Shown one piece after another: positions 6,977 to 60,525 of a stretch of DNA of 64,000 nt. The DNA comes from a virus. A program made the position numbers and the translations under genes. The notes under the pieces are model-generated. The model was not told the origin of the DNA, searched no databases, and saw only the letters and a program-made list of their open reading frames with translations. Numbering within the stretch: position 1 is the first letter of the stretch; every line of letters starts with the position of its first letter. The stretch covers positions 1 through 64,000 of the IMG/VR virus record IMGVR_UViG_3300017605_001304; one strand, 5' to 3'.

Positions 6977-7226
6977 TCGGCACCTCTTCAGGCAGAGTGT
7001 TCAACCACGCGGCCGCGGTGTCGAGCTCCTCGCGCTCTTCCTTCGCGGCGAGTCGCTTGGTCGCCCACAGCGCCGACATCTCGATCGAGACGAGGCGCTG
7101 CTCTTCCTTGGCGATCAGGTCACGCAGGATCTCTTTAGGACTCTTCATCCGCGAACTCCGCCTGGGGCTTGGGGACGAACGACTCGTCCCGGAACACGTA
7201 GACGCACCTCGGATAGTACCGCTCAT
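6954..7226 (-). CDS. Small coiled-coil hypothetical protein (start 7226 or 7148)
   Basis: Helical, charged ORF in operon. Confidence 0.5.
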   Translation of the reverse strand: MSGTIRGASTCSGTSRSSPSPRRSSRMKSPKEILRDLIAKEEQRLVSIEMSALWATKRLAAKEEREELDTAAAWLNTLPEEVPSAAPGLH

Positions 7227-7582
7227 CGTCCCTTGAGGACCACGTCGTCCGGGTGGGCGTTCGAGAGATCCTTCTGCAGCGGATCGTCGTCGGTCGTGAA
7301 GTGATGCGCGGGCGACGATCCGCTCCGCTTCGGTTCTCCGTAGAAGGCCCCGTCACCGGTGAAGCGCGTCTCGTCACAAGAACGCGTCATCAGCAAGACG
7401 ACCATCGTGAACAGAGAGGCGACCACGCCAGTAACGCCGGCCGCCTGCGCGCTCCCGTCGCTCTGCCGCGCCTTGTAGATGGCACGCAGACTCAGCGGGA
7501 TTCCGATGAAGATACACGCGAGCGCCGCGAACAGCAGCAGCTCGTGCGGCGGGGTCGACATGATCTCGCGAAACGTGCTCAT
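7223..7582 (-). CDS. Two-TM membrane protein
   Basis: Two hydrophobic segments; RBS. Confidence 0.6.
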   Translation of the reverse strand: MSTFREIMSTPPHELLLFAALACIFIGIPLSLRAIYKARQSDGSAQAAGVTGVVASLFTMVVLLMTRSCDETRFTGDGAFYGEPKRSGSSPAHHFTTDDDPLQKDLSNAHPDDVVLKGR

Positions 7583-7600
7583 GCTCCTTCTCCTCCTGAC

Positions 7601-7879
7601 CTAAATGGAATCCTCGATCTCGATCGAACGCAGCGAGCGGGCAGGCCCGAGTCCGAGGCTCTCGCGAACACGAAGGGAGCTGATCTTCTCCCGTTCGCCG
7701 TCGAACTCTTCGAGCCAGCCGCGCTCGCGGCCGTATTGGTCCCGCTCCAGGACGAGCCACGACTGGCGCTCGCTCCGCTTGCCGGTGCTGCGCGAGATGC
7801 TCTGGACGAAGATCGACTTGCAGCCGACCTCTTCCCACCGAGGCCGGAAGTGGATCGCGCGTAGGAGTTTCCTCAGCAT
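7601..7879 (-). CDS. Hypothetical protein
   Basis: MLRKLLRAIHF..., overlapping the phosphoesterase stop. Confidence 0.5.
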   Translation of the reverse strand: MLRKLLRAIHFRPRWEEVGCKSIFVQSISRSTGKRSERQSWLVLERDQYGRERGWLEEFDGEREKISSLRVRESLGLGPARSLRSIEIEDSI

Positions 7880-34073: not shown

Positions 34074-34571
34074 TCAGCTCTCCACCTTCATCTGAGCACG
34101 ACGATTGTTCGACATGTGCTCGACCGCAGTGAACCGCATGCGCAACGCTTCACGCAGTCCGTAAAAAATGTCCGCGAGTTCTTGGACCCGGATCGCGCGC
34201 TTCTTGGCGTTCTGGACACCAGGGTCCAGCTTCACCTGCTGCGCGATCTTGGCCTCGGTCAACTTGTCCTGGGTTGGGATTCCACGGATCGCAACGTCCG
34301 CGCGAGCCTCCACCACGTCGGCGTCTACCTCGGCCGCCTCGGCTGCGCCCTTGTAGAGGGCATGCAGTCCGTTGGAGGCAACGTATTGCCGCGTGAGCAG
34401 GATCAGGTGACCTTCAAGGTCACTGGCCGGGTCGATCGACAGACGAGTCAGTAGTGCGGTGGCTTCCGCAAGATCCGGCGCCGAGAGAATATCGTCGTAG
34501 CGACTCAGTTCACTGATTACATACTGCAGGTGACGCGTCGACTTCGACGCGACCGGTGCTTCTTGCTCCAA
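34074..34571 (-). CDS. UvsY-like recombination mediator
   Basis: Helical KLTEAKIAQQVKLDP...SNNRR; replication context. Confidence 0.45.
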   Translation of the reverse strand: MEQEAPVASKSTRHLQYVISELSRYDDILSAPDLAEATALLTRLSIDPASDLEGHLILLTRQYVASNGLHALYKGAAEAAEVDADVVEARADVAIRGIPTQDKLTEAKIAQQVKLDPGVQNAKKRAIRVQELADIFYGLREALRMRFTAVEHMSNNRRAQMKVES

Positions 34572-37386
34572 GTGTTTTCTCCTTCAACTTCAACGTCACG
34601 GAGATCTTCTCGTAAGGCTGAACATCCTCGATGTCTTCCGTCTTGAGTGCCGGTCCCTCCTTCGTCCGGTCGTCCCGGATGCCTTCACTGACGATGTCTT
34701 CGCGCTCGATGTCGAACCAGTGTTCGATGCACGGGCGCAGGCGTACGTAGTGATCGCGATTGCCCGACAACGTGACTTCGTTGCCCGCGAGTTCGCAGGC
34801 CATGGTCGCCTGCCAGTCCCGGCCCCACTCGAACTCGACCTTGAGGCTCGCGGTCAGCCACTCGAAGCCCTTGCCGCGATCGCCCAACATCGACGTCTGG
34901 AGCAGGTCGTAGACCTGGAACAGCTCGGGCGTGTTCAGGTCGCACTCGATCGAGTCGTGGATGAACGCGAACGGCCGACTCTTGAGGCTCATCTCCACGA
35001 GCTCGCGGCGGAAGTCGACCAGGGCCGCGAGTCCAATGTCGGATGCAGGGCCCTGGATCGGGTAGTTGACCGCCGCGCGCTCCGCTTCACCCAGGCGGCG
35101 CTTCTCGTCCTGGCTCCGGTCGTGATAGCGGATCGAGTGCAGCTTCCCGTCGGGGAGCGGGTAGTAGCGCCCCGTCGGGCCGATCAAGTAGCCGTGCCTG
35201 TGCACCTGCGTGTGGCAGGCGTCGATGAACGCCTTCACCTTCGGGAAGGTCCGGAAGTACGCGTCGACCAGCGCCTGCGCGTCCTCCTTCGAGATGCCGT
35301 ACTCCAACGCGATCGCGCGGGCACCGCGGCCGTAGATGATCCCGAAGCTCACCGCCTTCGCCCGGTGCCGCTCCTCCTTCGTTACCTGCTCCCGCGGCTT
35401 ACGCAGGATCACGGAGGCCGTGTACAGGTGCACGTCCCCGCCGAACTCCTTGAAGCGCGGGTCGGTACCCGAGAGCACGGCGAGCAGGTTCTCGTCGCCC
35501 GCCAAGGCCGCCAGCACACGCAGCTCATTCTGGCTGAAGTCGGCCTTGAGGAACGAGCCGAACGTGAAGCGCGAGATGCCGGCCGACCGGATCACGGAGC
35601 CACGCGGGAAGTTCTGCAGGTTCGGATCGTTGCTGGAGAGCCGTCCCGTGACGGTCTTCGTCAAGCCGAAGTTGCTGTGAATCAGCCAGGGCAACTGCGG
35701 CGGCTCGAAGCACCTCGTCGCCCATCGCGACTCCTCCCCGCGATTCTGAATCTCTTCCAGGAGCTTCTTCACGTATCGCGTGAGCCGGGTCTTCGCGTGC
35801 CGGTGCCGGATCACGTTGATCACCGTCGTGTAGACGTCGCCACGGTCGTGGCGGTACGCCCAGCGGCCGAGCTCGATCAGCCGCTTCTCCTTGCTGCTCA
35901 CCGACTCCTCGCCCGCCTCGTTCACGGTGGGGCAGCCCAACGTCCGATAGAGGAACGACGAGACGTGGCGAGCCGACACCGGGTTCAGCGTCGGGGCCAA
36001 GCCCTTCTTGTTCTTGGGCGCGACCTCTGCCATCCAGGAGGTGTGCTGCGGCAGGGCGCGAATCGTCTTCGCCGTCGCCGCCATCACATCCAGGTACAGC
36101 GGCTCCAGCTCGGCGAGGCGCTTGGGGTCGAGCAAGATCCCGTCGCTCTCCATCGCCGCGAGCGTCCGCCACGTCCCCATGTAGAAGCGCTTGAAGGTCG
36201 ACAGCCGGTCCGCCTGCTTCAGCTTCTCTTTCAGCATCGGGTAGAGGCGCAGCGTGGCGTCTGCGTCTCGACAGCCGTATTCCACGAGCTCGTCCATGGC
36301 GGTGCTCGCCATGGTCTGCCCCTTCAGCGCACCTTTCATCTGCCGCTTGTACGGCGGGAATCCAAGGTAGGCCGAGGACAGATAACCCAGGCTGGCCGGG
36401 CGCGAGCCCCCTGTGAGGCAGTGCTGCGCATACATCGTGTCGAAACGGACGTTCCTCGTTTCGATGCCCAGCTTGGAATACAGCCACTTGTGATCGAACG
36501 AGTAGTTATGTCCAACGACCGGAATGCCGGATTCCAGAAGGAACTTGATGTTGCGTTGGAACGAGGCCGCGCCGTCCACGGTGGTGAATGCCCGACCCAT
36601 CAGGTCATTATGGAACAGCGGGATCAGGGCCGCCTGCCCTGTGCCCCAGGCGATCTGGATCGAGACAATCGCCGCCTTCGGGTCGAAGGCGTGGAGTCCG
36701 GTCGTCTCCAGGTCGACGGCGATCGCGCCATGTTGCAGGCGCTTGTCACGGCAGTCCGCGATCAAGCGATCGACCAGCTCATGCAGGTCGCGCTTCTTCG
36801 TGATCAAGCGGTAGTCGACGGGCGCGTTGACCGTGCGGTGGTACTGCATGCGGGCGATCTGGAGGTCGCCCACAATCGCCGCACGGGCTTCGAGATTGCC
36901 CCGCAAGACGAAGGCGGGGTGATACGTCGGGATGACCGGAATGCCCTTGTACTGCGTGATCTGCCCGTGCAGCGTCCCCATCGCCGCACGCAGCCCGAGC
37001 AGGGACTTCGTCGCGACCGCGCCGAGACAGACGATCGCCTTGGGGCGGACGTGCTCGATCTCTTCGTCCAAATACGGTCGGCACTTCGTGAGAGCGTTAT
37101 CGGACGGACGAATCGTCTTGCCGTGGTCGTCGCTCGGCCAGCAGCGGACCGCGTTGGTCCACCGAACGTCCGCCTCGGGTATGCCCGCTTCCTTCAGCAT
37201 CTCGTCGAGGAGCTGGCCGGAGGGGCCGATGAACGGCGTCTTCGCTTCGTTCTCTTGAGGACCCGGCGCTTCGCCGACGATCAGGAGCTGGGGCCGGTCC
37301 GAGCCCCGTGGGTGTATCAGTGCATTGGCTTTGACGCAGAGCTCACACCGCTCGCAGTCGCGAGCGAGGTAGGCCGGAAGTGACAT
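34510..37386 (-). CDS. polA: Family A DNA polymerase with N-terminal family-4 uracil-DNA glycosylase and 3'-5' exonuclease domains
   Basis: CxxCxLC, GEAPG, YHPA (UDG4); DLETTG, GHN..FD, Y...D (exo); DFSQNELR, RHRAKAVSFGIIYG, HDS (pol motifs A/B/C). Confidence 0.93.
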   Translation of the reverse strand: MSLPAYLARDCERCELCVKANALIHPRGSDRPQLLIVGEAPGPQENEAKTPFIGPSGQLLDEMLKEAGIPEADVRWTNAVRCWPSDDHGKTIRPSDNALTKCRPYLDEEIEHVRPKAIVCLGAVATKSLLGLRAAMGTLHGQITQYKGIPVIPTYHPAFVLRGNLEARAAIVGDLQIARMQYHRTVNAPVDYRLITKKRDLHELVDRLIADCRDKRLQHGAIAVDLETTGLHAFDPKAAIVSIQIAWGTGQAALIPLFHNDLMGRAFTTVDGAASFQRNIKFLLESGIPVVGHNYSFDHKWLYSKLGIETRNVRFDTMYAQHCLTGGSRPASLGYLSSAYLGFPPYKRQMKGALKGQTMASTAMDELVEYGCRDADATLRLYPMLKEKLKQADRLSTFKRFYMGTWRTLAAMESDGILLDPKRLAELEPLYLDVMAATAKTIRALPQHTSWMAEVAPKNKKGLAPTLNPVSARHVSSFLYRTLGCPTVNEAGEESVSSKEKRLIELGRWAYRHDRGDVYTTVINVIRHRHAKTRLTRYVKKLLEEIQNRGEESRWATRCFEPPQLPWLIHSNFGLTKTVTGRLSSNDPNLQNFPRGSVIRSAGISRFTFGSFLKADFSQNELRVLAALAGDENLLAVLSGTDPRFKEFGGDVHLYTASVILRKPREQVTKEERHRAKAVSFGIIYGRGARAIALEYGISKEDAQALVDAYFRTFPKVKAFIDACHTQVHRHGYLIGPTGRYYPLPDGKLHSIRYHDRSQDEKRRLGEAERAAVNYPIQGPASDIGLAALVDFRRELVEMSLKSRPFAFIHDSIECDLNTPELFQVYDLLQTSMLGDRGKGFEWLTASLKVEFEWGRDWQATMACELAGNEVTLSGNRDHYVRLRPCIEHWFDIEREDIVSEGIRDDRTKEGPALKTEDIEDVQPYEKISVTLKLKEKTLGARSTGRVEVDASPAVCNQ

Positions 37387-37414
37387 GAGTGGTTCCAGAC
37401 TGGGTGAGGCACGG

Positions 37415-37798
37415 TCAGACCCACTCGCCGAGTGGACCGAGGCTCTCGCGAGCGAGCACGACGTCGAGCGTGCTCGGGTAGTAGTGCGTGCTGTCGTAGA
37501 CGCACGTGAGACAGATACAGTCGGCCTCGTGGAGATCCTCCGCCGTCGCCTGCGGCAGCCCCTCCTCACGGCGCAGGTCGCGCCGCTGCTGGTAGAGCGA
37601 CCGTACGGTGTCGAGGATACGGCGACGGCCGACGGCGACGGCCAGGGCGGGTGGAGGGGGACCGGCCTTCACGGCCCGTTTCACGATCCCGAGATACGCT
37701 TCCTGGAGCAGGTCTTCGATATCCAGCGGGTGTCCGCGAACGCGGCCCGCGGCGAACTTGCGCAGTGACGTGCAGACCTGTACCGAGAACGCATCCAT
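37415..37798 (-). CDS. Short sigma70 region-2-like protein
   Basis: IEDLLQEAYL...RRRILDTVR. Confidence 0.55.
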   Translation of the reverse strand: MDAFSVQVCTSLRKFAAGRVRGHPLDIEDLLQEAYLGIVKRAVKAGPPPPALAVAVGRRRILDTVRSLYQQRRDLRREEGLPQATAEDLHEADCICLTCVYDSTHYYPSTLDVVLARESLGPLGEWV

Positions 37799-46500: not shown

Positions 46501-46589
46501 AGTCCCTCCCAAAGAACATGGGCCCGCAGAGTCTTTCGACCCTACGGGCCCATTCCGGGCCTCCACCAACCGTCTCAGACTCGGCTGGT

Positions 46590-47330
46590 TTAGTTCATCA
46601 CGACCTGCTTGTCGTACTCGCGGTCGACCCACCGGATCTCGCCGCGTTCCAGGCGCTCTTTCTCGCCCTGGTTCCACGCCGGCCGGTTCGCCCGCTTCAA
46701 GACGTCGTCCTCGTCGTGCATGAGAGCCAGCGCCAGCGCGCCGACCCGGTCCTCGACCGGGTACTGGAAGCTCGCGTGCATGCAGAACTTGTCCTTCGGC
46801 TTGCCGTCGTGGTCGAGCAGGTAGAGCTCGCCGCCGAAGCCGGGGTTGATCTCGAAGATCCCCGCCTTGCCGCGGTAGCGGACGATCTTCTTCGTCCGCC
46901 AGTCGCGCATCTGCTCCTCGGAGAGGATGAGCGACAGCATCTGCTCGGCGGTCTGCCGCTGCTTGCGGCGCTTCCACCGACGCTGGACCTTCGCCCGGCG
47001 CTGCTCCTCCGCCGTCGGCGGGACGTACACCTGCTGGTTGACCTGCTGATGGTTCCAGTGCTGCGTGTACCGGATCTGCCCGGTCCAGTTCGACCAGATG
47101 ATCCCGGCGTTCGTGACGGTGACCGTGGACGCCCCGCTCTCCCCGTACGTAGCGTTCGTCCAGGTCTTCCAGACGATGGGCGCGCTGATCGTCGTCGCGC
47201 TGCCGGTCACGTAGTTCCAGTTGTTCCAGACCGCGTTGGTGTACGTGATGCCGCCCGTGACGGACGTGACGGACGTGTCGGAGTCCGTGTTGTATCCCGT
47301 GCCCCCGCTGGTTGCCGCGTAGTACGGCAT
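46590..47330 (-). CDS. Protein with T/S/N-rich WxxW-repeat N-terminus and C-terminal CxH...D domain
   Basis: VWNNW, VWKTW, IWSNW; FCMH...YPVEDRVGALALALMHDE..VLKRAN. Confidence 0.75.
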   Translation of the reverse strand: MPYYAATSGGTGYNTDSDTSVTSVTGGITYTNAVWNNWNYVTGSATTISAPIVWKTWTNATYGESGASTVTVTNAGIIWSNWTGQIRYTQHWNHQQVNQQVYVPPTAEEQRRAKVQRRWKRRKQRQTAEQMLSLILSEEQMRDWRTKKIVRYRGKAGIFEINPGFGGELYLLDHDGKPKDKFCMHASFQYPVEDRVGALALALMHDEDDVLKRANRPAWNQGEKERLERGEIRWVDREYDKQVVMN

Positions 47331-47333
47331 CGC

Positions 47334-47609
47334 TCAGCCGCCAACGACCGCCGCGGCCATGATGACCGCCTTCGCCTCGGGGTCGAACTTGCGCATGACC
47401 TCGGCCTTCTCGCCGCTCTTCTTCACGGCGTAGCCGACCATGCCGCGCTTCACGCAGTCGTCGAACGTGCGGCGCGCCGTCTCGGTCTCGTCCTGGTTCT
47501 CCGGATCCCAGATGACCTTCACGTCACCGGCGCTCGGATCCATGTAGCGGAGTACGTGCGGCTCCTTCGAAGCCGCGCTCTCCTCCAACATCTGCAACGT
47601 CCCAGGCAT
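47334..47609 (-). CDS. 91-aa protein ending in Gly-Gly
   Basis: AAGGAG RBS; GDVKVIWD...F...G..GY...FDPEAKAVIMAAAVVGG-stop. Confidence 0.8.
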   Translation of the reverse strand: MPGTLQMLEESAASKEPHVLRYMDPSAGDVKVIWDPENQDETETARRTFDDCVKRGMVGYAVKKSGEKAEVMRKFDPEAKAVIMAAAVVGG

Positions 47610-47653
47610 CGCTCGTGCTCCTTCTGGTAAGTCCGCTCCTCCGAGCGGAGTGC

Positions 47654-49391: not shown

Positions 49392-49426
49392 GCCCCGGGT
49401 GCCCGCTCAGGCGCCCGGGGCGTTTT
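49392..49426 (+). terminator. Rho-independent terminator
   Basis: 12-bp stem GCCCCGGGTGCC/GGCGCCCGGGGC then GTTTT. Confidence 0.6.
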
Positions 49427-49917: not shown

Positions 49918-50118
49918 ATGTTCAAGGACCGCTACCGCATGCGGTGGACCCGGGTCGGTGCTGCCGGGTACGTCGGACTCGCGATGCGGGCCTCCAGGAA
50001 CACGACGACGCTGCCGGTCACCGGCGGCAACGGGCAGGTCCTCTTCCTGATGCTGTGGAACCAGGGCACCACGCGCGTCGCGCAAGAGGTCGACCGGCTG
50101 CTCGGGGCACGTAGATGA
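49918..50118 (+). CDS. Micro-protein array B, ORF1
   Basis: MFKDRYRMRW...RLLGARR. Confidence 0.6.
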   Translation: MFKDRYRMRWTRVGAAGYVGLAMRASRNTTTLPVTGGNGQVLFLMLWNQGTTRVAQEVDRLLGARR

Positions 50119-50330
50119 ACTTCAAGCACCGCTTCGATCTTCGGTGGCGCAACGCGCCGTGGCCGAGCTCCATCATGCCCACCTGGACGTTGCGGGTCGG
50201 TCCGGAAGACGAGCTGACCTTCTCGATGCTGGACGTCAACCGCATCGAGGACATGATGTTCGAGGCGAACCACGGCGCCGAGAACGTGTTCGCGATGAAC
50301 CTCAGCGGCTTGTTCAGGGACCGTTCATGA
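50115..50330 (+). CDS. Micro-protein array B, ORF2
   Basis: MNFKHRF..W...L.VGP...LFRDRS. Confidence 0.65.
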   Translation: MNFKHRFDLRWRNAPWPSSIMPTWTLRVGPEDELTFSMLDVNRIEDMMFEANHGAENVFAMNLSGLFRDRS

Positions 50331-50557
50331 ACTTCAAGAAGCGCTACGAGTTCTGGTGGCAGCCGCAGCGAGAGTGGTTCGGTCGCGTGCCGGGAGAGGT
50401 CGAGTGCGCGCTGTCGATCGGCCCCGGCATCGGGACGATGGTCTTCACGGAGCAGGACGCCGGCAGCATCGGGGACCTCATCTTCAGCGTGAACCACAAC
50501 CCCCGCGGCGAGGGTTTCACCGCGCACCTGCAAGAACTCTTCCGGGATCGGTCATGA
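50327..50557 (+). CDS. Micro-protein array B, ORF3 (paralog of ORF2)
   Basis: MNFKKRY..W...LSIGP...LFRDRS. Confidence 0.65.
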   Translation: MNFKKRYEFWWQPQREWFGRVPGEVECALSIGPGIGTMVFTEQDAGSIGDLIFSVNHNPRGEGFTAHLQELFRDRS

Positions 50558-50775
50558 ACCCGCACGGCCGCTACTACGCGCAGTGGCACACGCAGCGAGG
50601 GTGGCGAGGCGGCAAGTCGCCGAAAGTTCACTACGTCCTGACGCTCGGCCCATGCAGCGACGAGATGGTATTCTCGTGGCAAGACGCTACGTCTGTCTCG
50701 GACCTGCTCGCGATGGACAGCCTCGGCGAGCGCAGCGTCGCCGTGAGCCTGGACCTCTTGCTCGGTGCATCATGA
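50554..50775 (+). CDS. Micro-protein array B, ORF4 (paralog)
   Basis: GRYYAQW...LTLGP..EMVFSWQD..SVSDL. Confidence 0.65.
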   Translation: MNPHGRYYAQWHTQRGWRGGKSPKVHYVLTLGPCSDEMVFSWQDATSVSDLLAMDSLGERSVAVSLDLLLGAS

Positions 50776-50996
50776 ACATGGCCCGCGCCACGCTGTGTAC
50801 GCTCTACGTGAACGTCAGCGAAGGGGGTGACACACGCCTTTACTTCGATGGCTGGGGCCGTACGCCGACCACGTGGTATATGGCGACCCACGACTGGGTG
50901 CAGCTCACGTTCATGCGGCACCGCGTCGACCTCTGCTCGCACTGGCTCAACGTATTCAAGGACGACGCGCTGAGGACCCTGTTCAAGGCGGCATGA
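50772..50996 (+). CDS. Micro-protein array B, ORF5
   Basis: RLYFDGWG...LRTLFKAA; ATGA coupling. Confidence 0.55.
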   Translation: MNMARATLCTLYVNVSEGGDTRLYFDGWGRTPTTWYMATHDWVQLTFMRHRVDLCSHWLNVFKDDALRTLFKAA

Positions 50997-54921: not shown

Positions 54922-57900
54922 TTACGGCTGCGCCTGGAACTTCATCGTGATGGTGCCGCCTCGAATCGTTGCAGCGGATCCGTCGTTCGAGACGCTCACC
55001 GCCAGCTTGGCCGTCGGTGAAGAGAAGAGCAGGTTCAACGCCGCCGTCGAGAAGGTCACCGGAGATCCGGCCCCCACCAACGTCAGCGTCGCGGTCGTGA
55101 GCGCGGTCAAGTTGCGGAACGTCACGGTCACTGCCTGACCCGACGTGAGCCCCGCCATCAGGGTGAGCGTCGCCTCCACGAGGCGGACCGGCTTGCCCCC
55201 GGACGGGATGTTGGTGCCGTTCGTCGGAGAGCCGAGAACGTAGAGCGCCGTGTCGCTCGTCGACAGCGACACCGGCATCGAGCAGGTCACGTACGAGTAG
55301 CTCTGGCCGACAAGCTGGTTCGAGACGCCGGTGAGCTGGCCGGTCATCGTCGCCGCGGTGGCCGTGTAGCCGCCCGGCGTCAGCGTCACGGCGAGGCTCT
55401 CGCCGTTGATCTGGTCGGAGCCACCGGAGAGGTGGCTCGCAGCGTGGGGATCCGGGTTGAACGAGGGCGGCTTGTTCGAGAGGTCCGCGTAGCTGATCTG
55501 CCCGCCCGTGCCGACGCCGGCATGCGTGTGCGAGAAGATCCTTGACGCCGACTCGTTGCAGAGCGGGCCGGAAGCGTTGCGTCCGATGAAGATCACCGGC
55601 CCGCCGCCCGTCGCGGTACCGAGCGAATACTGCGTGGCCGAGTCGAACGAAGACGTCACGAGGACGTGCTTCGCCGGCAGGTTGCCGGTGTGGATGCCAG
55701 CGGCCGGGTCGAGCGCGTGGGACTTGTTCGTCACGTCCGTCGCGAAGTCGACGGCCGTGTACCCGCCCGTGTTGTGCTTGTGGCTGCCCGCCGCCACCTG
55801 CCCGCTGGTCGAGCCGACGTCGGCGACGAGCTGGTTCGCAGCGAACGTGAGGCCCGTGCCCGCGTCGACGTTGACCGTCGCCTTGCCGGCCAGCGGGTTC
55901 GAGACGTTGAGACCCTGCGTCCCGAATTCGAGCGTCGTGATGTTCGAGAAGGAGCCGCCGCCCGTTTCCTGGACGGCCAGAGTGCCCCCACCGCCACCAC
56001 TGGCCGCAACGCTCACGTCGACTCGGAACGAGTTCGTCCCGATGTTGACCGGCGTCACCGTCCAGGTGGCCGAAGTCGTGTTGATGAAGTTGATCTGGTC
56101 GAGCGTCTTCCCGTCCTGGAGGACCGTGCCGCCAAGCGAGACGTGCGGGTTGACGTTCGCGCAGTCCTCGACCGTCGCGAGCTTGGTGCGCTCAGTCGAG
56201 AGCATCAGGACCTTGTTCGTACCGTCCGCAATCGCGTCCGCGTTGTTCGTGGTCGTGTCGAAGAGGCCCGAGATGGTCCGGGTGACCGTCCCGTTGCCAA
56301 TCGTATTGCCGGTCGCGACGAGCTGCGTGCCCTGCACGAACGAGCCCGACGCCACGGCGGATGCGAACACGCCGCCTCCGCTGAAGACGGCGCTGCCCTT
56401 GAAGGGACTCGTCGAGTCCTTGGGGAAGAGCTGGATCAGCGGGCTGGCGTTGTTCTGGACATCCGTGATCTCGAAGGTGCTCTGCCGCCCTGTCGAGAGT
56501 TCGTTGTAGACGTTGATCTGCCAACGCTCTTTCAGAGAGTTGGCCGAGTCTCGGTTCAGGAAGTTGATCGTCGTCGGATCGGTGTTGTTGATGGCGGCGA
56601 TGGCCACAGCAGCCTGCTGCGTCGAGTGGGTCGAGCGCAGCCAGGGCTCGATGTAGACCCGCGCGTATCCAGGGACGATGCCTGCTGGGTTCGCGGCGTC
56701 CGACGAGCTCAGCACGAGGCGGCCGTTCTTGCCCAGCCACGTGGTCGGATTCGTGTCCGTCCCGAAGTAACGGGACGGGTTGAGCACGTGCGAGAACGAC
56801 GTCGACGCGTCGAAGGGTCCCGCGCCGCCCCAGGTCAGGTCTTTGGTCTTCGTGCGCTCGTAGAGGCTCGACCCCGAGCCCGAGCTCACCGTCTTCAGCG
56901 GGCCATCCACCAGGAGGACTCGGTCCCCGTCCGCGCTGTACGGGCCGCCGTCCGCGGTCGCGAAGGCCGAGTCGTTGAACACGAGCTGGCCGACGTTGTT
57001 GATCGCTGTGGAGCCCGAGACCGCCGTGCCGTTCTGCACCGCCGTGTCGAGGTACTTGCTGACGTCGAAGCCCGAGCCGCCTCCACCGGAGACGGCCATG
57101 TTGATGATGCCTGAGCCGCCCGACGAGAACGTCACGTTCGTCGTCGTGCCCTTGAGCGTGAACGAGCTGCCGGGGTTACCAGCGTTCAGCGTGAAGCTGT
57201 TGCCGTTCGCGTCCTGCAGCGAGAGCGAGCTGTACGCGTTCTGCGCGTTCACCGGCGTCCAAACGTTGGTCGCGGCGTCGTAGACGTAGACGCGCTTCTC
57301 ATTCAGGACGAGCGCGGTGACGCCCGACGGCGGATGCAGGCCGAACCAGCCCGAGCCAGGAGCCACGCGCGGCAGGTCGATCGCAGTCGCGACCGGCGTG
57401 ACCCAGTAAGGCGTCGGGCCGAGCGACTGCGCCGAGCCCGTTGTCGTGTAGGGGCGGACGGTGTCCAGACTGGTCCCAGTGACACCGTTCAGCCAGGACG
57501 GCTTAGTGCCGGTAACCGGGTCGATGCTGAGCGCGACGAGCTGCCGAATCATCGAGCTGATCGCGGTGGTGGCACCCCAGTCCGTGCCGCCGAACGTCGA
57601 GTGGGCCGGCGGCGCTGTCTTGCCGCTCTTGCCGTACTCCGCCGAGTTGTAAGTGGTGAGGTCGAGGATCTGGCTGCGCCGCGGCTGGGTCAACCAGTCC
57701 GTCGGCCGCAGGTTCAGGTTGTCGAGATAGTTCGTGTTCCACAGGAAGTCGATCGGGCTCATCGACAGGAAGGGATCGCGCTTGTTGATCGCGTCGCCCA
57801 GGTTCACGTTCCAGAGCGTCGTGAAGCTGCGGTCGCCCGTGCAGATCATCGTGCCCGGGTAAGAGACATAGTTGTAGGTCGGGCCCGAAGGATCGAACGG

Positions 57901-60525
57901 AGGAGGCGGAGGAGGCGGAGGAGGATCACCGCCACCCGCGCCGCCCGGGCCACCGCCTGTGCCGCCGCCACCCCCGCCACCGCCCGTGTCGGTCGTCGAC
58001 CAACGGAAGCGGCGGTTCGTGGTGTCCTGTTCGATCAGGATGCCCGGACCAGCGACGAACTCGCACGGGAACTCCGGCGTGCAGTCGTTGACGATGCCAC
58101 TGGAAGGCGCCGTCCAGGTCGTGCCAACCCGCAGGCTCGTGATCAGGTCGCGCAGACGCGCACCTGAGACTTCCGGCAGGCCGGGCATCGTGCCGCTGAC
58201 CTGCTCGCGGACGATGAACTTGTCGACGATCGACGTCACCGTCTGCGTGATGTGGTTGCCGAGGATCACGCCCGCGAGCGTGCCCCAGGTGCCTGCAATC
58301 GTGGTCGTGAGGATCGGCGTCTCGTCCTGCTCCCAGCGCGTGGGATCGGTCGAGGAGCGCCACCAGACCTTGAGCGTCGGCGTCGTGCTGCCGCTGAGGC
58401 TTGCACGCAGGACCTGCCCGCGCGCCGAGTTCAGCGCCTCCGTGTCCTGCGTGCCGAGCACGTTCAGCGCAAGGCCGCCCGAGCCGTTGGGACCCACCGT
58501 GCCCCAGATCAAACGGCCCGTCGGGACCACGTACGTCGGATCCGTCGGGACCTTGCCGTTTCCGTGCGTGACGAGGACGAAGATCGCGTGGTCGACCTCG
58601 GTGCCGTTCAGCACGCCGCCCAGCAAGACGCCGCAGCCCGTCTTGTAGAGCAGCGGCTGCGTGCCATTCGAGTCGTTGTCGCCGACCTGATTGTCGCCCG
58701 ACATACGGGCCGAGATCGCGACCATCATCGCGGCGGTCGGGAAGCCACCGACCGACGTGACGTTGTTCTGATAGAGGTACGCCGCGAACGCATCCGCCAC
58801 GCCGCTGATGCAGTCGCTCGGCGCGAGCTCGATCCGGTTGTTGTTGACGCGGGCACCGAAGGTGCCGCCCTGGCTGGAGCCCGTGGTCCACGCCACGCTG
58901 TCGGCCGAGCTGCCAAGCGACGGCTGCGTCGTCGACGCGCGGTTCTTGAAGTCGTCCTTCAGATCCGGCGCGCGGTAGAGATCGCGGACGCCCGTGCCGT
59001 GCACGCCGAAGGAGTTGAACGTGCCAGAGAACGTCCCGAAGAAGCGCGAGTCCTTGGCGTCGATCAGCTCGGGGATGTCGGAGATGTGCAGCGCGGCCGT
59101 GGTCGAGTTCGGGCCCGAGGTCGAGAAGTAGTGGTCGTAGCTCCCCGTCGTGCCCTTCACGAGGCCGGACGGGTTGTAGTCGAGCGTGGTGCGCAGGCGA
59201 TACGCCTCACGCTCCGGCACGTACTTGATGTGCCGGAAGCCGTCCGGGATGGCCCGCTTCCAAGCCGGCGTCGCAGCGATGCCGGTGCGGCGGACGTTCC
59301 ACGCCCACGGGATGCCGGTGTCGCGTGCGTAGCGAACCTCGCCGTCCGCAAGGCCCGTGGCCGGCAGGAGCTGCGAAGAGTCGACCGGCGGCCCGTAGAG
59401 GCCAATCCCGGCCCAGCGGTCGACGCCACGGAGCAGGGGGACCCACTCCGGGGCAGCCTGGGTCCAGGGGCGGAACGCCTGATGGTCCTCGATCATGATC
59501 GTGCCGGTGAGCGCGTGGTCGTATTCGTCGAGGTTGATCAGCCCCGTGTTGACGCCGAGCAGGACCGAGCTCGCGTCGTTCTGGACCATCGCGATCGAGA
59601 TGTACGCCGTGCCGCCGAAGGGGTCGGTCGACGGGCCCGGCACCTGGACCAGGAGCCGGTTGTCGGCGGTGAGCGAGGCGAACGTCGCCGTCTGGTACTG
59701 CGGGAAGCCTGAGACCGTGAACGCGGTGCGGCAGAAGGTGTTGATGGTCGACGGAATGGCGCTGCGCACCATCGAGCCGTTGACCAGCGCGATCGGGACG
59801 TCGACCTCCGTCGTGTCCTTCGCCTTGATCTTGAAGTGCAGGCCATTGCGGCCGGTCAGGTCGATCGTGGCGGCGAGCACCGGGCCCAGGATCTGAGCCG
59901 GACCGCGATTGCGGAACTTGATCTCTTGCTCGAAGGTCGCGGCGTCCGCCGCCACGTTCCAAAGCGCGCCGTCAAGAGGGTCCGAGCCCCGGTACGTGTA
60001 CGGCGGGCCAGATTCGCGCTTGCTCAGCGCGAGGATCTGCTCCAAGCCATCGAACTTGTTGGTCGGGGTGTCCAGGTTGTTCGTGTACGTATCGACCTTG
60101 ACGATCGAGTTCGCCCCGGCGTAGGGCGACTTCAGCAGGACGAATCCGTCGAGCTGATAGGCCAGAGTGCCGCTACCTCCCGCGCCCGTGTACGCGGTGT
60201 TGATCGTCGTAATGACGTCGGCCAGGGTGCGAGCGTTCGCAGGCGACGCTCCACCGGTCGAGCAGTCGACGTCAAACGTCAGGTTCGTCACCACCGACGA
60301 CGACGTGTTCGTCGTGATGCGGAGGAACTTCCCGGACGACAGATCTTGGGTCCCACCCGTGGTCCAGCGCCGGTCACCGGCGAGCTGGGCAGGAGTTCTG
60401 TTCTCGGTCGGGCTGCGCAGGTGCGTCGCCAGCATGCCGAGGTTTCGACGAAGTTCACTGCTCTTAACGCGCCCGCCGTAGACCGGCAGCGTCGGGTCAA
60501 AAGCGAAGAGATCGGTAGCAGCCAT
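54922..60525 (-). CDS. Large tail fibre / receptor-binding protein
   Basis: 1867 aa, G/S/T-rich; poly-Gly/Pro hinges; HxH and HAASH..GG.D motifs; next to baseplate genes. Confidence 0.75.
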   Translation of the reverse strand: MAATDLFAFDPTLPVYGGRVKSSELRRNLGMLATHLRSPTENRTPAQLAGDRRWTTGGTQDLSSGKFLRITTNTSSSVVTNLTFDVDCSTGGASPANARTLADVITTINTAYTGAGGSGTLAYQLDGFVLLKSPYAGANSIVKVDTYTNNLDTPTNKFDGLEQILALSKRESGPPYTYRGSDPLDGALWNVAADAATFEQEIKFRNRGPAQILGPVLAATIDLTGRNGLHFKIKAKDTTEVDVPIALVNGSMVRSAIPSTINTFCRTAFTVSGFPQYQTATFASLTADNRLLVQVPGPSTDPFGGTAYISIAMVQNDASSVLLGVNTGLINLDEYDHALTGTIMIEDHQAFRPWTQAAPEWVPLLRGVDRWAGIGLYGPPVDSSQLLPATGLADGEVRYARDTGIPWAWNVRRTGIAATPAWKRAIPDGFRHIKYVPEREAYRLRTTLDYNPSGLVKGTTGSYDHYFSTSGPNSTTAALHISDIPELIDAKDSRFFGTFSGTFNSFGVHGTGVRDLYRAPDLKDDFKNRASTTQPSLGSSADSVAWTTGSSQGGTFGARVNNNRIELAPSDCISGVADAFAAYLYQNNVTSVGGFPTAAMMVAISARMSGDNQVGDNDSNGTQPLLYKTGCGVLLGGVLNGTEVDHAIFVLVTHGNGKVPTDPTYVVPTGRLIWGTVGPNGSGGLALNVLGTQDTEALNSARGQVLRASLSGSTTPTLKVWWRSSTDPTRWEQDETPILTTTIAGTWGTLAGVILGNHITQTVTSIVDKFIVREQVSGTMPGLPEVSGARLRDLITSLRVGTTWTAPSSGIVNDCTPEFPCEFVAGPGILIEQDTTNRRFRWSTTDTGGGGGGGGTGGGPGGAGGGDPPPPPPPPPFDPSGPTYNYVSYPGTMICTGDRSFTTLWNVNLGDAINKRDPFLSMSPIDFLWNTNYLDNLNLRPTDWLTQPRRSQILDLTTYNSAEYGKSGKTAPPAHSTFGGTDWGATTAISSMIRQLVALSIDPVTGTKPSWLNGVTGTSLDTVRPYTTTGSAQSLGPTPYWVTPVATAIDLPRVAPGSGWFGLHPPSGVTALVLNEKRVYVYDAATNVWTPVNAQNAYSSLSLQDANGNSFTLNAGNPGSSFTLKGTTTNVTFSSGGSGIINMAVSGGGGSGFDVSKYLDTAVQNGTAVSGSTAINNVGQLVFNDSAFATADGGPYSADGDRVLLVDGPLKTVSSGSGSSLYERTKTKDLTWGGAGPFDASTSFSHVLNPSRYFGTDTNPTTWLGKNGRLVLSSSDAANPAGIVPGYARVYIEPWLRSTHSTQQAAVAIAAINNTDPTTINFLNRDSANSLKERWQINVYNELSTGRQSTFEITDVQNNASPLIQLFPKDSTSPFKGSAVFSGGGVFASAVASGSFVQGTQLVATGNTIGNGTVTRTISGLFDTTTNNADAIADGTNKVLMLSTERTKLATVEDCANVNPHVSLGGTVLQDGKTLDQINFINTTSATWTVTPVNIGTNSFRVDVSVAASGGGGGTLAVQETGGGSFSNITTLEFGTQGLNVSNPLAGKATVNVDAGTGLTFAANQLVADVGSTSGQVAAGSHKHNTGGYTAVDFATDVTNKSHALDPAAGIHTGNLPAKHVLVTSSFDSATQYSLGTATGGGPVIFIGRNASGPLCNESASRIFSHTHAGVGTGGQISYADLSNKPPSFNPDPHAASHLSGGSDQINGESLAVTLTPGGYTATAATMTGQLTGVSNQLVGQSYSYVTCSMPVSLSTSDTALYVLGSPTNGTNIPSGGKPVRLVEATLTLMAGLTSGQAVTVTFRNLTALTTATLTLVGAGSPVTFSTAALNLLFSSPTAKLAVSVSNDGSAATIRGGTITMKFQAQP

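Follow-up and report, generated by a model that had tools for sequence, protein, structure and literature searches.

A predicted ubiquitin-like protein with a Gly-Gly end and its linked Cys/Asp partner: a candidate tagging module of large uncultured phages

At one locus of a large uncultured phage, a protein of 91 residues ends exactly in AAAVVGG, and the gene that follows it encodes a protein with a C-terminal FCMH...P.ED domain. Proteins of the MoaD, ThiS, Urm1 and SAMP type are beta-grasp proteins that are made with a free Gly-Gly end, and a free carboxylate requires ATP-dependent activation before it can be joined to anything. The question raised by the locus is whether the two genes form a ubiquitin-like tagging system on the virus side, as a preliminary description of this DNA had proposed, or whether the pair is to be explained in some other way.

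The gene pair and its genomic setting

The window analyzed here covers the opening 64 kb of an IMG/VR virus record that is 149 kb long and has an estimated completeness of about 70%; the G+C content of the window is about 65%. Translation bears out what had been described from the letters, namely the small protein (P0001) that stops directly after its Gly-Gly and the partner (P0002) that starts 3 nt beyond this stop and carries the FCMH (residues 182-185) and PVED (residues 191-194) motifs in its C-terminal part (Table 1). The start codon of P0001 is backed by its nearest relative, P0003, which likewise begins MPG. Because the partner starts only 3 nt past the stop of the first gene, the two genes are probably translationally coupled. 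The hairpin that had been noted behind the partner gene is also real: the fold of a 101-nt stretch has a z of -5.8, none of 200 shuffles folded as well, and the stem is followed by a T-rich tail, GTTCTTTGGG. The gene pair thus looks like the end of one transcription unit.

Table 1. Positions of the two genes, of their parts and of the associated signals, in the numbering of the 64-kb window
Feature	Position	Strand	Remarks
Shine-Dalgarno-like AAGGAG	47618..47623	-	8 nt upstream of the P0001 start codon
Predicted ubiquitin-like gene (P0001, 91 aa)	47334..47609	-	ATG at 47609; TGA 47334-47336; translation ends AAAVVGG
Partner gene (P0002, 246 aa)	46590..47330	-	ATG at 47330; stop 46590-46592
Partner residues 1-100	47031..47330	-	Thr/Ser/Asn/Gly/Trp-rich, predicted disordered, three [VI]-W-x-x-W repeats
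Partner residues 101-246	46593..47030	-	conserved domain predicted to bind the ubiquitin-like protein
Cys183 codon	46782..46784	-	end of strand 4
Asp194 codon	46749..46751	-	start of the helix after the meander
Terminator-like hairpin closing the two-gene unit	46518..46553	-	16 pairs, 10 G-C

The window also encodes a T4-like portal and an SbcC/Mre11-like pair, and directly downstream of the gene pair lie genes for a DnaB-like helicase and a ResIII/DEAD helicase. Given these genes and that of a family A DNA polymerase in the window, the pair is placed in the replication region of the phage, and this location among replication genes suggests that the module acts within the infected cell.

Several other features of the window deserve mention in their own right. 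The family A DNA polymerase (34510-37569, minus strand) bears an N-terminal domain of the uracil-DNA-glycosylase (UDG) superfamily, and such a UDG-family A polymerase fusion also adjoins the pair in another phage locus, L017. An orf of 1867 codons (54922-60525, minus strand) is without a Pfam match. At 50115-50996 (plus strand), several short neighboring orfs with similar starts (MNFK.R...W) resemble tandem paralogues, two of them ending in LFRDRS, and a strong, G+C-rich hairpin with a T-rich tail (12 pairs, 11 of them G-C) is found upstream of the region, at 49392-49421 (plus strand).

Distribution and linkage of the two genes

Relatives of P0001 were found by an exhaustive HMMER search, and those of the partner required an alignment as query; a word-indexed homologue search returned only the window's own proteins. 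The phmmer search of 1.84 billion representatives with P0001 gave 787 clusters at E <= 1e-3, of which 57 lie at E <= 1e-10. In nearly all of the best 150 of these 787 matches the alignment reaches the very end of P0001. Terminal GG is present in 137 of the 150 and AG in five, a handful of the 150 have a short or long extension beyond the GG, and GGV, GGI and GGANG ends occur in a few family members; among the copies in the individually analyzed loci, 35 of 36 end in GG. Residues W34 and G91 do not vary, G28, D29, A45, F49, G66, F75, D76 and G90 hardly vary, and the family has a signature of its own, GD-x-K-x-x-WD in the first hairpin and FDP ahead of the last strand. The conservation of Gly-Gly among homologues, on which the tagging proposal had been made to depend, is thus upheld; the end of the small protein is under strong selection, and the protein is a genuine ubiquitin-like candidate.

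This family stands apart from those in the curated collections. Neither P0001 nor P0002 has a match in Pfam or PHROGs, the 84 ubiquitin-like and 52 partner relatives searched in the same collections gave no meaningful family, and none of the 84 matched a ubiquitin-like family in Pfam even at E <= 10. P0001 accordingly falls outside ThiS (PF02597) and related curated families by sequence, and PF02597 itself was sought at the locus in vain. Searches of the PDB sequences with profiles of both proteins returned chance matches only, with no ubiquitin-like protein for P0001.

A few members depart from the usual form. In locus L044 (4001-4693) the ubiquitin-like protein is fused beyond its GG to a DUF6197 domain, in L045 (4001-4366) it has nine residues beyond the GG, and in both cases the partner gene follows; protein P0055, of 159 aa, is a tandem double ubiquitin-like protein.

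The link between the two genes was first apparent by tblastn in a 595-kb uncultured phage with a 36%-identical GG protein, followed by one inserted orf and then a homologue of the partner. The set of loci was extended by 33 from two IMG/VR scans (contigs of 4-390 kb) and two from metagenome contigs. Wherever DNA downstream of the GG gene was available, 34 loci out of 34 (30 of them non-redundant), the profile of the partner's C-terminal domain matches an orf directly behind that gene; the two loci without a match are contigs cut right after the GG gene, and two additional loci that were looked at separately also carry the pair. In most loci the distance between the two genes is -8 to +18 nt, and elsewhere an HNH or other orf lies between them. 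This linkage spans everything from 24-kb fragments to 595-kb genomes, with 28-49% identity of the ubiquitin-like protein to P0001. The linkage expected from the preliminary description therefore exists, and the counts support a pair that is obligate and tightly coupled in phages very distant from one another. An all-against-all comparison of the loci found no further gene common across them, and a third conserved member of the module is rejected.

Inserted genes lie exactly between the two in three of the loci: a 361-aa orf in L004 (6298-7383), a weak HNH_3 protein in L017 (7106-7648) and a 98-aa orf in L001 (4288-4584). The junction may be a favored landing site for mobile genes. A clade of huge phages also keeps two further genes upstream of the pair which are absent from the smaller phages (L001 3551-3916 and 2010-2630, with equivalents in L003-L015); one encodes a Cys-rich protein of about 120 aa with the look of a zinc ribbon, the other a protein of 110-206 aa.

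Among GenBank phages, tblastn found the pair in two metagenomic records only, the uncultured huge phage LR756511.1 and Virus Rctr197k (KX853510.1). Both have true homologues of the two genes in the same order, either unannotated or labeled just 'hypothetical protein', and their partners are without the W-x-x-W repeats seen in P0002. No relative turned up when 185,579 prokaryote species genomes were scanned twice by pattern, although scans of this kind hinge on short patterns and do not prove that prophages lack the genes. Structure searches of the ESM Atlas and BFVD gave unnamed phage proteins only. In these searches the ubiquitin-like family is known only from phage-like and metagenomic DNA.

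Predicted folds, conserved residues and complex

The AlphaFold model of P0001, made with the alignment of 84 relatives (pLDDT 82.8), consists of strands at residues 18-24 and 28-34, a helix at 39-54, strands at 57-62, 70-72 and 81-86, and a floppy tail that carries the conserved Gly-Gly. The beta-beta-alpha-beta-beta-beta order is that of the classic beta-grasp, and every top structural neighbor is a beta-grasp protein. The best Foldseek matches (ubiquitin, SUMO, UBX, NEDD8, ISG15 and FAT10) have weak E values of 0.02-0.09, so that the assignment rests on topology and on the uniformity of the neighbors. On this model P0001 is predicted to be a beta-grasp ubiquitin-like protein; the early suggestion of a possibly non-beta-grasp modifier finds no support in topology or neighbors, and such a fold is rejected. 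The tail, a hydrophobic strand followed by P-x-x-x-G-G, is one that we take to resemble those of MoaD and ThiS.

The partner, modeled from 52 sequences, has pLDDT below 50 at residues 1-19 and 32-94 and 88-97 at residues 101-220. The well-predicted domain has a long helix (107-135), a second helix (138-147), a meander of four strands (150-153, 158-162, 168-172 and 178-183) of which the last ends at Cys183, a Pro-containing loop, and two further helices (192-205 and 207-213). The alignment of 65 partner domains shows no exception to Cys183 or Asp194 (65/65 each) and strong conservation of A128, L132, L136, Y159, I161, G164, P191, F210, A214 and N215. At position 185 there are 23 His, 23 Gln and 15 Val among the 65, and the partner alignments hold no other invariant or nearly invariant His. 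Of the Cys-His-Asp partner originally described, then, the Cys and the Asp stand and the His does not: with His185 not conserved there is no universal triad, and membership of the acyl-transferases or cysteine peptidases on that ground is rejected.

The N-terminal region of the partner is very different from one phage to another. Thr, Ser, Asn, Gly and Trp abound in it and Lys is scarce, the first 111 residues of P0002 including a single Lys. In most partners that do not belong to the huge-phage clade it has two to five copies of W-x-x-W (consensus T-T-x-T-[VI]-W-x-x-W-[NT]), and in those of the clade a Cys/Tyr/Thr-rich region takes the place of the repeats. Variable arms joined to a conserved module are what one would expect of an adaptor or carrier directed at different targets.

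Weaker second copies of the Cys/Asp domain are encoded in L016 (10759-11712, E 1e-6) and L022 (7195-7980, E 1e-4), with unrelated N-termini and no adjacent GG gene, indicating that the domain is used with other 'arms' as well; a second copy was also sought on the contig studied here, and none was found. In the ESM Atlas the structural look-alikes of the partner domain are 117-145 residues long.

Whether the partner is related to E2 enzymes is a matter of predicted structure. Its model has the order of elements of the UBC superfold, and shares with E2, UEV and RWD domains the N-terminal helix, the four-strand meander and the C-terminal helices; the conserved Cys at the exit of the meander and the invariant Asp nearby are also E2-like. 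Against this, a Foldseek search of the PDB found nothing for the partner, its structural scores with solved UBC and RWD domains are in the noise range, and it has no sequence match in Pfam (UQ_con included), PHROGs or the PDB. Unlike the Cys of E2s, that of the partner ends strand 4 rather than lying in a later flap; there is no HPN motif upstream of it, and the usual motif, C-x-[HQV]-(P), has the order reversed relative to HPN...C. 'UBC/RWD-like' is thus a lead given by the model, not a membership. Compared by structure, the domain resembles none of the peptidase folds, whether papain-like, OTU, ULP or other.

Partner residues 100-236 were co-folded with the ubiquitin-like protein, using separate alignments for the two and three controls. 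The scores were 0.74, 0.75 and 0.76, as against 0.00 in all three controls; the mark applied is one that 58 of 80 solved complexes and 2 of 110 mismatched pairs attain. The runs have at least 93% of their contacts in common, with 96-100 contacts each and a pLDDT of at least 80 for the partner chain. As neither protein has a solved sequence relative, it is unlikely that this result reflects a complex already solved. The prediction supports binding between the two, short of demonstrating it. On the ubiquitin-like side, the confident interface takes in residues 21-29, 58-71 and 81-91, that is, a face of the sheet and the whole Gly-Gly tail; on the partner side it takes in residues 120-140, 182-187, 189-195, 197-206 and 210-215, so that Cys183, Asp194, Ala214 and also His185 all lie inside it. 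Asp194 touches the ubiquitin-like protein at residues 23, 85 and 86, where the expected error is low. As to whether the tail reaches the Cys, which had been put forward as a check on the tagging proposal, the tail and Cys183 do share one confident interface, but a Gly91-Cys183 pair is absent among the individually listed contacts. The predicted packing, with the sheet face on the post-meander helix and the tail following the loop of Cys183 and Asp194 and directed towards the Cys, presumably recalls the closed state of E2~ubiquitin.

Possible functions and relation to known systems

Any conjugation would need an activating enzyme. It had been noted that no E1, E2 or JAB gene is visible in the window, and this holds for the whole 149-kb contig, itself only some 70% complete, in which neither ThiF nor Prok-JAB was detected at E 0.1, nor UQ_con at E 10. 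ThiF is likewise absent from five pair-bearing phages that are 94-100% complete, and JAB from the four of these screened for it, all 100% complete; in such genomes without ThiF the module would have to borrow an E1 from the host. It is conceivable, by analogy with the MoaD-like tail, that in most of the phages it would use the host's MoeB/ThiF-type enzyme. Among five huge phages with the pair, in contrast, four encode ThiF. In L009 a full-length ThiF/MoeB-like gene (7063-7815, minus strand; 250 aa, 221 bits) is convergent with the partner gene and abuts its 3' end; the ubiquitin-like protein of this locus ends in AG, not GG.

In four pair-bearing phages, three of them huge and one of at least 111 kb, ThiF and Prok-JAB genes lie together but far from the pair (L038 887-3339, at about 280.7-282.4 kb in LR756511.1; L040/L048; L041/L049; L042/L050). 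The distance between the JAB and ThiF genes is 1 kb in one huge phage and 2-3.3 kb in two others and in the smaller one, and the two genes of LR756511.1 are separated by that of a 214-aa protein of unknown family. The ThiF and JAB genes may supply the missing E1 and peptidase, or they may belong to a separate system. No canonical ThiS or MoaD scored over the cut-off in the three ThiF-carrying huge phages searched, so that the ubiquitin-like protein is the only GG-ended candidate found there for their E1.

The reading that we favor is that of a ubiquitin-like protein served by an E2-like carrier and by a host or phage E1, a plausible account though short of a probable one; both folds and the interface in it are predicted, while activation, thioester and target are inferred. 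The ubiquitin-like protein would be synthesized already mature, with its Gly-Gly carboxyl end free, and would be adenylated there by a ThiF/MoeB-type E1, supplied by the host in most phages and by the phage itself in some of the huge ones. It would then be passed as a thioester to Cys183 of the partner, acting as an E2-like carrier, and from there to a target picked by the variable N-terminal region, or onto that region itself. Being Lys-poor and disordered, this region is not an obvious target of the lysine type. What favors the E2-like reading is how strictly the GG end is kept, together with a dedicated partner, an invariant Cys and Asp beside the tail, and the variable arm; the lack of ThiF and JAB on the contig and of a UQ_con match, the missing HPN and the position of the Cys at the end of strand 4 all speak against it.

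It is possible, if rather unlikely, that the two proteins form an obligate heterodimer in which nothing is conjugated. The ubiquitin-like protein would then be a permanent subunit or regulator, with its Gly-Gly plugging a pocket, and Cys183 and Asp194 would serve the structure or some other chemistry; MoaD-MoaE, or the ubiquitin binders of the UEV and RWD type, would be the analogues. The strength and size of the predicted interface would suit such a complex, as would the tight translational coupling, which fits a 1:1 stoichiometry. Most pair-bearing phages encode no E1, E3 or JAB, nor are such enzymes linked to the pair. There is also precedent in the RWD and UEV members of the UBC superfold, which are non-catalytic binders (PMC3173227). 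However, packing alone hardly explains an exact GG end kept in about 91% of highly diverged members, a single invariant Cys with an invariant Asp beside the tail looks catalytic, and the extensions beyond GG in some members would need processing.

We regard as unlikely a role in sulfur transfer, for which MoaD, ThiS, TtuB and Urm1 would be the models. Here the Gly-Gly end would be turned into a thiocarboxylate by a MoeB/ThiF-type enzyme of the host together with a sulfurtransferase, and the partner would relay the sulfur through Cys183 to thiolate a nucleic acid or a small molecule during replication. The likeness of the small protein to MoaD agrees with this, but comparison of the loci found no rhodanese, PP-loop ATPase or other sulfur-insertion enzyme linked to the pair. 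The partner, moreover, has only one conserved Cys and no recognizable nucleotide-binding or Fe-S motif, and its variable, disordered N-terminus would be unusual in a biosynthetic enzyme.

Still more doubtful is the idea that the partner is a cysteine peptidase specific for the ubiquitin-like protein, active in its processing or deconjugation, with the predicted complex representing an enzyme-product state. The common interface predicted for the GG tail and Cys183 would be in keeping with it, and the partner is retained beside the extended forms described above, including those of L045 and of the DUF6197 fusion in L044. Yet the conserved His that would be looked for is wanting, the domain is unlike any of the peptidase folds compared, more than 90% of the ubiquitin-like proteins require no processing, and a peptidase alone would leave the ubiquitin-like protein without a means of attachment. 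It is extremely improbable that the GG end and the neighborhood of the two genes are mere coincidence and their functions unrelated: neither protein has an annotated relative, but chance is excluded by the linkage in 34 of 34 loci and the conservation of GG, and the co-fold passed where its controls did not.

Returning to the E2-like carrier, we tentatively propose a widespread phage tagging system in which a ready-made ubiquitin-like protein and a dedicated Cys carrier with a variable targeting arm would hijack a MoeB/ThiF-type E1 of the host and modify proteins of the host or the phage early in infection. If so, it could remodel the cell or blunt the ubiquitin-like defenses of bacteria, such as Bil, Bub and CBASS Cap2. 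Should the pair conjugate at all, phages themselves would be using ubiquitin-like tagging, with two genes and borrowed activation, which raises the question of what is tagged and whether host ubiquitin-like immunity is countered in this way. Even if the association is purely non-covalent, the two proteins represent new families, and their genes form an early module that is conserved among uncultured phages, the huge ones among them.

To our knowledge, ubiquitin-like conjugation in prokaryotes has so far comprised the cellular sulfur carriers and, since 2023-2024, anti-phage operons with an E1 of their own. The protein described here differs from those of the MoaD, ThiS, Urm1 and SAMP type in having no match to PF02597 or any other Pfam family, in being found in phage-like contigs only, and in that its gene is not beside those for MoaE, ThiG, ThiF or sulfur enzymes. 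With its hundreds of clusters and its private partner it makes up a ubiquitin-like family of its own. Pfam and PHROGs contain neither protein, no solved structure is related to either by sequence, and full-text literature searches found no description of such a phage-encoded ubiquitin-like protein or of the pair. The Bil, Bub and type II CBASS Cap2/Cap3 operons are bacterial; an E1 is always among their genes, and an E2 and a peptidase usually are too (PMC11601596; see also PMC10097602). The present module, by comparison, belongs to phages, consists of two genes and is mostly without a genome-encoded E1 or peptidase. What may be new is ubiquitin-like chemistry on the side of the virus, with two genes and no obligatory E1; if the tagging proposal is true, the pair would be the first viral counterpart of the bacterial systems and the smallest ubiquitin-like conjugation machinery known.
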